From: Octopus vulgaris
Taxonomy: Eukaryota
Assembly (NCBI GenBank): GCA_951406725.2
Contig: OX597818.1
Span: forward strand, 105,772,001-105,836,000
DNA: 64,000 nucleotides
Reading direction: 5' to 3'
The notes under the pieces were generated by a model that saw only the letters and a program-made list of their open reading frames with translations, ran no database searches and had not been told where the DNA came from. Positions 37,319 through 41,324 of the stretch are shown here, piece after piece (positions within the stretch are counted from its first letter, which is position 1; every line of letters starts with the position of its first letter). The position numbers and the translations under genes were made by a program.

Positions 37319-37523
37319 CCCTTTAACATTCATATTACTGTCAAATTTAATGCCTATTAAATGATATTATTTTGAATTAATCATACCTTTGAGATTTTGA
37401 TGATGTGGTGTTTATTTTTAGAATGACATTGTAAGGTAGATGTGAGAGGCTGGATCTGGTCAGCTTGATCACAAAACGAGTAGAATATTTTGGCTGGGTA
37501 TGACTGGTTTAAATGCTTAAGGG
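37319..37523. mobile_element. piggyBac-type MITE
   Basis: TTAA|CCCTTTAACATT ... AATGCTTAAGGG|TTAA. A related, weaker candidate lies at ~30717-31108. Confidence 0.7.
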
Positions 37524-39522
37524 TTAAGCAATCAAACATTTGCCTAGAGCCTCCCTACCTAAAAATAAGAGTCATTTACAAATGCAAATAACTTTATCAG
37601 TAAAGTCGTATTAAGTCTCCAAAATTAAGTTTATGTCAGGCATTTCTTAAAATGCTGATTTTTTTTCCTTCTTTCCCTCAGAATCTTATTTTTCCTTGTA
37701 AAATGAATTTTTGTTTTAAAAAGTTATTCTTTGCAATTGTCTTGCATTCATTTTTTTGTTTGTTTTTAAATGAACCAATTCCATGATCTCTCCCTGAAAA
37801 ATATAAAAAGAGTTGAAATAGGATGCATGTGAACTAAAAGCTGCATACTACAAAGCATTACAGACGTTTCACCAATACCAGTGCCTCTATAATATCTAAT
37901 ATCACAAAGCCATTAATTTGGGGAGGATTGTAGTTTATTAAATGGACATGTCATTGATTGGCACTTTATTTTATCCCGATTTGGAAAGTATGAAAGTCAA
38001 AAGTCGATCAGAGTGAACTCAGAATGTGTTCTTCTGACCCTGTTCCAATAATAATGATGAATAAGTATACAAGTATATACAATATTTTGGTAAATTTAAT
38101 CAACCTCACTAGTAGCTAACAAGTACTTATATTTATTAAGCGATCCTACTCCATGCTGTGAGATATTTCCTCGCTGCCTTTCCAGCTTTGTTGCTAAAAC
38201 GTCTCCCCTTCCTTTTTGTTTAGTGCGTGGTTGGGGCAGTCGAATCGCTTATTATAACAGTCTTGCAAACTAACGGGTATTTCAACACTACAACACACAA
38301 TGAGCTAGTATTAGTCTTTTTGAAAAAAGGTGTCATTGCCAAGTATTTTCTGTTAAGCGGAAAACATTTCATATCATTAAAAGTACTAAAAAAAAAGTTT
38401 AAAATTTCATTTACAGACAGTATTCTTTCAAAACTCCGTATTTATTTTGTAAAATGTCTTTCGAGACAATTTTTTATATTGATCTCGTTACATTTTATAC
38501 AAAGCTCTTTGCCCCCCTCTTGCCACGGACTTAGTATCCTCATAACTTTCTGAAAACAAATATTTTAAAAGTTATGTTGATGTAATGTTAAAAGAAACAT
38601 TTGTAAAAAGTTTCGGATCATTCCCCTTTCCTTCCGACTTTACTCTAAACGCGTTTTAAACTGCATATTTTAAAATGGAATTGTAGGTACAGACATATGT
38701 TTTCGAGAATGTGGGATAAGGATTATGTTGGGGGTAAAAAAAAATCAGGAAAAAAATACGGTTTGAGGAAAAGTCGTGGTGGGGAACAGCAAACTAGTTA
38801 CACCGATTCGCTTCACAAAATTGTTTGGATGCTTTCATGTTAAACAAAACAAATGAAAAAAAAAACAGAATAAGTAAATAATTTATTAATGCATAAAGAT
38901 TGAATTTATCATGAATAGTCTTGGAAAAGCTATTTGGAATGAGAATTTGAATATGAGTGATCTGTTTCCGTTGACTGCGAACATTCAGATGGATAGAGTG
39001 GTGTGATTGTTTTTGTTAGCGATATACGAGAGGTCAAATGGCTACAACTGGGAATCGAAACTGCATCGTAGGCTCGCTGGGCAGGAATTTATTTTGGTAT
39101 CCTACAGAATTTCATTTTATGATGTACTTTCTACTACCAGCATATCTCAAGTGACCTGTGACCTGCTTGCTTTACTACCAAAACAAACAAGCACACGCAT
39201 AAAAATTGTTTTTCGTGTTGCTGTATTGAATATTATTTTTCTATGCAAAAGATAATGAAAGGAACCCAATGGTTATATATATAATGTGTGTTTTAAATTT
39301 TAACAGGAGCCATTTTGCTTAATGATTGTTTTTCAAAGCATAGTTTTTGCATTTTTTGTGTGTGGAAGTTATGAAAAAATAAATTTAAATAAATGAAGGG
39401 AAGTGGAAAAAGTTTTATATGTATAATAATAATAATAATAAACTAGGAAAATATGTCTGAATTGTTAAAATGCATAATGTGTAATTTCCATGTGTGGATA
39501 GAGAGAAGGAGACTCACCATGT

Positions 39523-40038
39523 TTACGTATTTAAAGCCCCATTTTGCCGAGTTGACCGTCGCCCATACCTTCTACTACTAGTTTCTGATTGTGAATTAGA
39601 GTTAACATTGTTACGTTTCAGTGCCATTCTGGCTTCTGCCTGTTCGAATTTTCTGTTAGCTCTTGCCTGGGCCATGGCCCTGGCGTTTCTTACTCTCTCC
39701 TTCCTCCTATACTCGTCATTTTGTCGAAGGATAGCCATTGAGATAGCATTCTCTTCTCGCTCTTTCCGCCTGTACTCGTCGTCCATTCTGGCCTGAGCTC
39801 TCGATAGAGCATTTTTTGCCCGTTCTCTTGCCCTATACTCCTCGCTCAAGCGGTTTCGTCTTTGAGCAGCTGCATTTCGTTCTCTCTCTTTCGCCCGGTA
39901 CTCTGGATCTTCTCTCATCCTCCTCATATTTTCAGCCGCGCGCGCTCTTGATAGTTCTTTGTTTGCAGTCCTATGTCTAACCAACAGCTCGCTCGATCTA
40001 GGTTGATCTTTGCGTACTGTTGTTTTAATCCTCGGCAT
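39523..40038 (-). CDS. Hypothetical 171-aa Arg/Glu/Ala-rich helical-repeat protein with an H3-tail-like N-terminus
   Basis: ATG in AAAAACATG context; open for 171 codons and clearly GC-richer than its flanks. EYR motifs at residues 46, 67, 88 and 109 give a period of 21. Donor ATG|GTGAGT lies 5 nt after the stop (39518/39517), with a candidate acceptor TTTGTTTTGGTAG at 39175 and AATAAA at 38887-38882. Confidence 0.65.
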   Translation of the reverse strand: MPRIKTTVRKDQPRSSELLVRHRTANKELSRARAAENMRRMREDPEYRAKERERNAAAQRRNRLSEEYRARERAKNALSRAQARMDDEYRRKEREENAISMAILRQNDEYRRKERVRNARAMAQARANRKFEQAEARMALKRNNVNSNSQSETSSRRYGRRSTRQNGALNT

Positions 40039-40384
40039 GTTTTTGTTCCGTTTGCTGTGCGATCTTGCCTTTTAAATTCTGCCTGAATCCCCAGACAAGG
40101 GTCTGTTTAAAACAGCCAACACTTTGAAGTTTTTGTATATGAAATGCAGTTTAAAAAAAAATTTCGAGAACGTATTGAATTAGAAAACAGTAGCTCACTC
40201 CCTTGCTTGTTGGTCTGGCCTTCTCCTGTGATTGCCATGTAGTGTCGAATAAGAGAGAGAGAGAATGCGCAGACAGTTACGAAATTGCTTTCTCTCTGCG
40301 CATACCCTCTTGTCTCCCTACATCACACACTCTCATGTTAAGGCGGCGGTGTTGACGTAGAAGCCAGCACAATAAAACGTGCTA

Positions 40385-40830
40385 TCATTCGTCAACGGGG
40401 TAGTGTTCTAAACGGGCGTCATAAAATCGGCCTTTCTGCCCATCGCGTAGCCCTGGTTGAAGGGCATAGGCTGAGATAATGATTGCTAACCCATGATTTA
40501 GCACTAATCTAATCTTACGTATTCTGTCGCATACTCTGACTACCTCGATTACCTTAACACATTTCTCCGCAAGAAGTATACCCACGCCCTCGACCCCGTC
40601 AGTGTTCCCTGACCAGAAAATCTTGTACCTGTGTTCTTTGCCTGTGAGGAACCTCCTCTTCACCTTACTTTCTTGGAAGCAGCACAAATCGACACATCTC
40701 CGTTCAAGCATCTCGACAATCACACCAGACCTACCTTTCAGTGTGCCAGCTCTGAGGGTATGAGAGATGTGGGACCTTGGGATGAGGGACAGCAGTGTCA
40801 TGAACCTGAAAAGAAAGCTCGCATTTGGCA
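40385..40830 (-). mobile_element. RTE LINE 5' fragment (APE endonuclease N-terminus)
   Basis: GTLKGRSGVIVEMLERRCVDLCCFQE..YKIFWSGN..GVGILL..CDRI..IISAYALQPG..FYD. Confidence 0.88.
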
Positions 40831-41060
40831 GAATTCATAAACAAACAATAGCCTTCAACCTGCATACACTACACCATCATTTTTATGCACTATATGATCG
40901 ATAAACCCTAGGTAGGGGTAGGCATTAGCGTTAAGCCTTTAGAAGTGTTTGTGGGAAACAACCAAGGATGACAGAGGATAGAAACTTCCGGTACAGGTGG
41001 AGGGGTACCGCGAGCCAGCAAATTTAGACGAGAGCATCTTCTGGATTTGTATACTTTCGG

Positions 41061-41324
41061 GGTACTACTAGCGAACAGTGGTCCCGGTGCGCGCACACGC
41101 ACAGTCGCGCGTCCGCGCTATATGTTCGTAAGTAGTTGATCCTATAACGACTATCTAGAAAAGTAAATAAAACACAAAATAAATAATTCTTTTACACAAA
41201 GTAAATAATTTTTGTTAAAGTAAATAAAACACAAAGTAAATAATTTTTTAAAAAGTAAGGATCGACTACTTACGACTAGCCTGCGCGTGTGCGCGCACCG
41301 GGACCACTGTTCGCCAGTAGTACC
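41061..41324. mobile_element. Mutator (MULE)-type MITE, young
   Basis: ~40-bp GC-rich TIRs (ggtactactagcgaacagtggtcccggtgcgcgcacacgc), an inner IR (tcgtaagtagttgatcct) and an AT-rich tandem core. Perfect 9-bp TSD tactttcgg at 41052-41060 and 41325-41333. Confidence 0.85.

Follow-up and report, generated by a model that had tools for sequence, protein, structure and literature searches.

A single-copy Octopus vulgaris gene with a 21-residue repeat array of the Helitron transposase kind and a histone H3-like start: a likely case of domestication

The reading frame, its transcripts and its variation

The window, that is the whole 64,000-nucleotide stretch of Octopus vulgaris DNA that was analysed, carries on its minus strand an intronless open reading frame for a basic protein, P0001 (Table 1). 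This frame had been proposed in the initial annotation and was recovered at 40038-39523, with no stop codon within its 171 codons. The start is the first in-frame ATG downstream of a stop at 40071, in the context AAAACATG with A at position -3, and lies within RNA-type contig cover; in this Met1 region, codons 5-37 are identical in the 95-97% relative described below. Databases contain a single close protein, predicted for Octopus vulgaris from the same locus; it begins at Met41 and has a different C-terminus, the public model of the locus being spliced otherwise and including an extra exon at 15131-15036, outside the stretch covered by the contig analysis. The basic C-terminal motif announced for the protein was found at residues 154-164.

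Table 1. Features of the P0001 locus, in window positions.
Feature	Position	Strand	Basis or remark
Intronless ORF, 171 aa (P0001)	39523..40038	-	Net charge about +24; single copy in own genome
N-terminal MPRIKTTVRK	40009..40038	-	Sequence; fits H3TM rule, resembles Helitron2 leaders MP[RK]x[RK]
Degenerate repeat 0 (residues 21-41)	39916..39978	-	Sequence, predicted model
Four core 21-aa repeats, R-x-D-x-E-Y-R-x-x-E-R-x-x-N-A (residues 42-125)	39664..39915	-	Self-similarity, relatives' profile
Degenerate repeat 5 (residues 126-146)	39601..39663	-	Sequence, predicted model
Basic Ser/Arg tail SSRRYGRRSTR (residues 154-164)	39547..39579	-	Translation
Putative 5' UTR	40039..40318	-	RNA-type contig ends at 40216, 40250, 40318
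Upstream ORF, 43 codons, in longer 5' UTR	40107..40238	-	Sequence
Unspliced 3' UTR	38871..39522	-	Contigs; AATAAA at 38887-38882, then U-rich run
GT-AG intron, alternative 3' UTR	37794..39517	-	One X8 contig
Downstream 3' UTR exon of spliced form	37421..37793	-	Contig record 26 of spliced form

No match to P0001 was obtained among Pfam families or PDB sequences, and therefore no histone fold is present, in agreement with the earlier statement; the fold that would make the protein a histone H3 variant is absent from the predicted model as well. The proposal that the gene is nested antisense in a host intron was not upheld. Among 78 frames chosen from the 461 window frames of at least 48 aa, a test that short exons would escape, the single match over cut-off was a reverse transcriptase, and no host-protein family was matched.

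One P0001 match was returned from the octopus genome by protein search and one, for the ORF with its 5' flank, by DNA search. The 3' flank gave one 65-nt match elsewhere, all of these counts being lower bounds. Interspersed copies with shared ends, as in an autonomous Helitron-like element, were not found by the DNA search, within the same lower bounds.

Expression, which had been named as a check, is indicated by RNA-type contigs from three studies that cover the ORF. The stretch or part of it is contained in 20 of 24 listed runs, and the contigs of eight were examined; X8 (38899-40318), X12 (38871-40250) and X15 (38923-40216) cover about 38900-40250 as a block, with a depth of 12-164 against 0-4 directly below. 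The RNA status of these three is a guess by the tool, and contigs do not prove strand, start or level. The splice signals and the poly(A) signal are both on the strand of the ORF. The AATAAA at 38887 lies just before the lower contig ends, and the contigs seem to be cut at a repeat at 38840-38870, according to a tool warning. The donor of the 3' UTR intron is situated 5 nt past the stop codon and its acceptor carries a polypyrimidine tract; a single X8 contig supports it, with a depth of 24 and a short side of 30 letters. The upstream ORF could damp translation. Run X6 was left uncounted as expression, as its flat depth of 3.6 over 37768-40243 resembles DNA or unspliced RNA. Run X21 gave no contig on the stretch, which does not demonstrate absence. 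Two further elements were seen nearby. Directly upstream of the transcript 5' end, at 40385-40834 on the minus strand, lies a fragment with no Pfam match, which we take to resemble a LINE endonuclease, and at 41061-41324 a MITE-like element has 44-nt inverted ends that are 95% complementary, with many further copies among the contigs.

A version of the locus that is about 95-97% alike, UTRs included, was available from two runs of one study, which are on record as RNA and labelled insect metagenome; we read it as a related octopus species. Against this relative, seven synonymous and four nonsynonymous changes were listed over 483 of 513 coding nucleotides, giving a pN/pS of 0.16-0.22 (p 0.004-0.014), so that the dN/dS comparison that had been suggested returned a synonymous excess with a ratio of about 0.2. 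One fully listed contig, with six synonymous and three nonsynonymous changes, gave 0.14-0.19 (p 0.005-0.017). Four differences near contig ends are unlisted; counting every one of them as nonsynonymous would raise the ratio to 0.33-0.44 (p 0.03-0.09). Run X13 showed no ORF differences against 15 in 1964 flanking nucleotides (p 0.02-0.03). One of the four protein changes in the relative strikes Glu46 of the first repeat. Based on these 11 changes, the ORF appears to be under purifying selection. A further contig of the relative (run X19, record 10, depth 12) matches the last 133 coding bases only (39526-39658) and has about 400 unrelated AT-rich bases ahead of the match; it may be a partial duplicate or another isoform.

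The 21-residue repeats and their predicted structure

The four repeats with an exact period of 21 residues were confirmed. EYR recurs at residues 46, 67, 88 and 109, and the lag-21 self-similarity score of 140 was reached by none of 2000 shuffles. Compared with one another, the core repeats show 43-60% likeness in DNA and share 9-13 of 21 residues, and they are free of stops as had been reported; a degenerate repeat flanks them on either side. A profile built from the relatives without P0001 gave P0001 a score of 78 bits, with 45.6 for the best stretch; none of 200 shuffles exceeded 6.7, and STPR proteins scored about zero. The Glu column of this profile is fixed by the chosen anchor, and an independent alignment likewise shows the Glu to be invariant: over 21 sequences, E51, E72 and E93 are invariant and R63, R84 and R105 nearly so.

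The gene had been called an orphan, which does not hold, since scanning 1.84 billion representatives in full with HMMER returned 32 matches, namely this locus and 31 others. The best stretches of these matches lie on the repeats and none begin before residue 7. The period is 21 in 30 of the 31 relatives, the named ones coming from flies, a lacewing and a mosquito, and in none of the 31 did the repeat itself match Pfam over cut-off. Longer homologues sought with the whole of P0001 were not found among 4616 candidates, and of 202 pattern matches in a JGI metagenome scan none was confirmed. These searches recovered no orthologue of P0001 more distant than the 95-97% relative.

The AlphaFold model with 21 aligned sequences breaks the helix at 44, 65, 84-86, 107 and 128, whereas the model without alignment is one long continuous helix; the pTM values are 0.44-0.53, and the N-terminus is predicted to be unstructured. 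The alignment-based prediction is thus one helix per 21-residue repeat, interrupted at the D-x-E cap. The single-sequence model, together with the E/R-rich composition and the fact that 21 residues make three heptads, would suit a charged single alpha-helix or coiled-coil spacer, or a binder of RNA or protein rather than a reader of DNA. We regard this as very unlikely, as the D-x-E cap, the Tyr and the Asn keep fixed places across the relatives, the alignment-based model is kinked at each repeat, the sequence has no regular large hydrophobic stripe, and the repeat is found fused to C2H2 fingers and to transposases.

STPR proteins, to which the repeats had been likened, have repeats of 'strictly' 23 residues with Glu1, Thr/Ser2 and Arg9, each repeat forming a helix that spans 4 bp in the major groove, and favour AT-rich units such as ATAC, according to the available text of PMC4856987. 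The octopus genome holds at least 133 true STPR (PF21107) matches among 150 scored of 1002 candidates; among the 20 + 36 loci read, these are mostly Helitron N-termini, with several standalone ORFs. The P0001 locus is absent from the 133, does not reach the STPR cut-off, fails the 23-residue spacing with its period of 21, and has Glu at the STPR Arg9 position in the register that we infer. Its likeness to octopus STPR proteins stays within shuffled and reversed controls. By eye, its N- and C-terminal tails had seemed to resemble those of the three standalone STPR genes of C3; this likeness failed shuffle and reversal controls and was rejected, the Ser/Arg tail taken separately not being significantly alike to theirs. 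The part of the comparison that stood concerns build. As in FMBP-1 and ZNF821, about four tandem basic repeats are present, each a predicted capped helix, in P0001 with breaks every 21 residues, and both repeat types are known from the N-termini of Helitron proteins, from standalone proteins and from fusions with C2H2 fingers. P0001 is accordingly not a member of the STPR family, yet is predicted to be built alike. Fold searches for this build returned nothing specific: Foldseek gave no match for either P0001 model, VIA-align gave generic helices only (best Z 5.8, poor rmsd), and all Atlas feature searches stayed below 0.9. Residues 38-130 of the Atlas model superpose on ZNF821 models with a TM of 0.70-0.72, below the bar of the tool.

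Relation to Helitron transposases

The domains listed in Helitron-like elements were taken from PMC11417382, according to the available text of which DUF6570 is a marker of HLE2 (Helentron/Helitron2), while STPRs are found almost only in HLE1. DUF6570 was present in 11 of the 31 relatives, Helitron_like_N in 3, PIF1 in 3 (one below cut-off), OTU in 3 and UCH in 1, and a Helitron-listed domain of any kind in 15. Helitron RepHel proteins have the 21-residue repeat as their N-terminal array, and the transposon link first suggested for the gene was thereby supported. In these proteins, chiefly of HLE2 with DUF6570, the repeat follows an MP[RK]x[RK] leader, as it does in P0001. P0001 differs from them in having no zinc-finger, DUF6570, Rep or helicase part, in being single copy and in having its own UTRs.

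With the 31 relatives as queries, no remains of Rep, PIF1 helicase or DUF6570 were found near the ORF in the window; three weak matches (E 0.017-0.15) lie outside the ORF and none is transposase-like. An element whose DNA would mark it as the parent of P0001 was not found in the DNA search of the same genome, and 21-residue repeats were not seen in any of five octopus DUF6570 regions. A decayed Helitron family with 21-residue repeats followed by RepHel remains is common in the genome (50 matches among 65 scored) and matches P0001 weakly (E 0.5). Such decayed N-termini would agree with P0001 being a neutral, recently stranded Helitron fragment, transcribed and without protein function. However, most decayed copies carry stops, whereas P0001 is intact, single-copy and unlike them in DNA, and its repeats have diverged by 40-57% yet stay in frame with a synonymous excess. 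Because of the single copy, the RNA-type cover and the selection, P0001 is not considered a neutral fragment, an explanation that had been named as a possible refutation and is extremely improbable.

Domesticated DNA-binding domains of transposases are known from CENP-B, THAP and BED proteins. In such cases the DNA-binding part is retained and the catalytic core is lost, as proposed for P0001; they derive from cut-and-paste elements, whereas the P0001 array is of the Helitron type. The features expected of a domesticated transposon gene that were found here are homology to a transposase part, one intact copy, transcription (with RNA status guessed for the same-species runs) and apparent purifying selection. 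In open-access literature listings, no case of a protein-coding host gene from a Helitron N-terminal array was found, nor a description of the 21-residue repeat or of the P0001 gene. Helitron expansion in Octopus vulgaris is described in PMC13282606, the available text of which does not report domestication.

Carriers of the 21-residue repeat that have no transposase also exist, namely C2H2 finger fusions, small standalone proteins and one exon on C3. Per repeat, P0001 is closest to a fusion with C2H2 zinc fingers (27 of 42 residues identical), to a dragonfly protein and to a standalone protein of 122 aa that starts MPKL, and of the five closest relatives per 42 residues, four have no transposase part (P0003, P0011, P0023 and P0014). 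Direct domestication is for this reason no more than likely. The same matches, and the spliced host-like exon on C3, would also fit P0001 having the same function but stemming from an older host family, of which it would be an intronless copy specific to the lineage, with Helitrons carrying the same 21-residue module without being the direct parent. We hold this to be possible, if rather doubtful, as the C3 exon scores low against P0001 (72 versus 132), the MP[RK]x[RK] leader is mostly seen in transposase-type relatives, and R/E-rich repeats near the consensus score high regardless of descent. Two observations belong to these carriers. P0003 combines 21-residue repeats with C2H2 zinc fingers on the plan that ZNF821 shows with 23-residue repeats, and at C3:81.519 Mb (L127:3981-4520, minus strand) a 179-aa open frame after a splice acceptor opens with 21-residue repeats and is a candidate second host-like carrier of the repeat.

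The H3-like N-terminus and the proposed role

With the Met removed, PRIKTTVRK is identical to the H3 motif of the initial annotation at positions 2, 4, 6, 8 and 9, as claimed there. The chance of at least five of nine identities per N-terminus is 7e-5 with approximate average frequencies, 7e-4 with P0001's own composition and 1e-3 with a position-specific null from the leaders of 13 relatives. Under the first two nulls, a set of 25,000 proteins would contain 2-17 such matches by expectation; chance may therefore account for the H3 likeness, and the caution voiced on this point was justified.

The H3TM rule, iM-[GASTCPV]-R-x-K, fits 48 human proteins, which are 5-fold enriched for chromatin function, and PRVK, PRRK and PRTK peptides are among those tested that bind K4me3 readers; direct in vivo K4me3 on H3TM proteins was not found in that study, as far as its available text goes (PMC8166343). 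The P0001 start, MPRIK, agrees with this rule. It had been feared that Pro1 would block K4 readers, and this is contradicted by VRK1 (PRVK), the K4me3 form of which binds the PHF2 PHD at 90 nM against 230 nM for H3, about 3-fold better (PMC8166343, available text). P0001 thus shares a rule with H3TM proteins such as VRK1, TSHZ1, HIVEP1 and BCL11B, with Pro1 as in VRK1; it differs from them in that the match extends to T6, R8 and K9 and the carrier is a transposon-type repeat array. Of the features of H3K9 mimics (SUV39H/G9a substrates), Arg at -1 is present (R8-K9), and the S, T, K or R at +1 is absent, Asp following K9. According to the available text of PMC8303541, SUV39H1 reads positions K4, T6 and R8 and prefers R, K, S or T after K9, and S10 phosphorylation blocks SUV39H2.

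An MP[RK]x[RK] leader precedes the repeats in 10 of the 31 relatives, at residue 1 in seven and at an internal Met in three (examples of relatives' leaders being MPKIKKQSR and MPRLRKTS), and R2 and K4 are therefore probably inherited; by their sequence, P1, the basic residues 2 and 4 and the hydrophobic residue 3 look inherited from a Helitron leader. The P0001 start has a BLOSUM score of 22 against H3; the leaders of the 13 relatives score at most 17, never combine R2 with K4 and share no more than two of the nine residues with H3. Under the relatives' null, 6-8% of leaders would have R2 together with K4. In the 95-97% relative no change is listed in 39927-40028 (p 0.03 at the UTR rate), codons 1-4 falling in the unlisted end zone, and this unchanged motif says little because pN is near 1%. 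The H3-like start may thus be largely a transposon-inherited basic leader rather than a selected mimic.

If it were a selected mimic, the free PRIKTTVRK would be K4-methylated, or bound unmethylated, and the array would carry PHD/Tudor readers or NuRD to its DNA sites, the protein acting as a pseudo-histone tail targeted by sequence. This would be in line with the H3TM rule and the reader binding and chromatin enrichment reported for it, with the additional match at the T6, R8 and K9 positions, part of them read by SUV39H1, with the relatives' leaders lacking such identities, with the unchanged motif in the relative, and with the same rule recurring at the starts of two standalone STPR ORFs among the three on C3 (below). 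However, a likeness of this degree is expected several times per proteome and the finding was chosen for that match, the R2 and K4 pair also arises under the relatives' null, Asp at the S10 position lies outside the SUV39H1/2 preference, and neither the in vivo data on H3TMs nor the low pN lend it weight; we consider a selected mimic unlikely.

The account that we favour, with somewhat more than even confidence, is that the locus is a single-copy octopus gene made up of a basic leader and a 21-residue array of the Helitron transposase kind, likely domesticated as a predicted DNA-wrapping nuclear factor, the start being mainly the inherited leader. The N-terminal leader and repeat array of a Helitron would have become a host gene in which the transposase core is absent. 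By analogy with STPR, the kinked helices would wrap along the major groove of DNA, each beginning at a D-x-E cap, with the conserved Arg residues placed on DNA phosphates and the N-A-x-x-(M/A) face in the groove. At about 4 bp per helix, four to six helices would wrap 16-24 bp, the targets presumably being AT-rich or short-repeat DNA, and nuclear import would proceed via the basic ends. The start is, by its residues, compatible with K4 writers and readers. A more far-reaching version, in which octopods domesticated a Helitron leader together with an uncatalogued 21-residue DNA-wrapping array and this leader was tuned to a nine-residue H3 mimic at repeat-rich DNA, recruiting or diverting K4/K9 writers and readers, is judged distinctly unlikely.

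The locus combines known kinds of parts, namely an STPR-like module, a domesticated transposase part and an H3TM start. The 21-residue repeat is a sister type of the STPR repeat that is without a Pfam model and occurs in Helitron transposases and in standalone and zinc-finger proteins of several animals, and P0001 is a small candidate for a Helitron-derived host protein. In the repeat-rich genome of the octopus, a protein of this type could have Helitron ends or AT-rich repeats as its binding sites, and if the H3-like start were functional, transposon domestication would be joined to histone mimicry.

Further STPR-type loci were seen in the same genome. At C3:151.34-151.37 Mb there are three standalone ORFs, all intact and 165-173 aa long, with 23-residue STPR repeats (L025:6878-7399, L027:413-1066 and L028:4070-4609); they share a C-terminal motif and form a candidate cluster of domesticated STPR genes. 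Two of the three start in accordance with the H3TM rule (MGRFK, MPRLK), and under the more far-reaching version above Helitron leaders may therefore be a recurring source of histone mimics. At C20:4.016 and 4.029 Mb (L033, L060), two long STPR-repeat ORFs show no RepHel in the part examined and are host-like. Very long tandem 69-bp units coding STPR repeats are present at C30:18.776-18.784 Mb (L035) and C4:48.27 Mb (L046), and both arrays are open for hundreds of codons.
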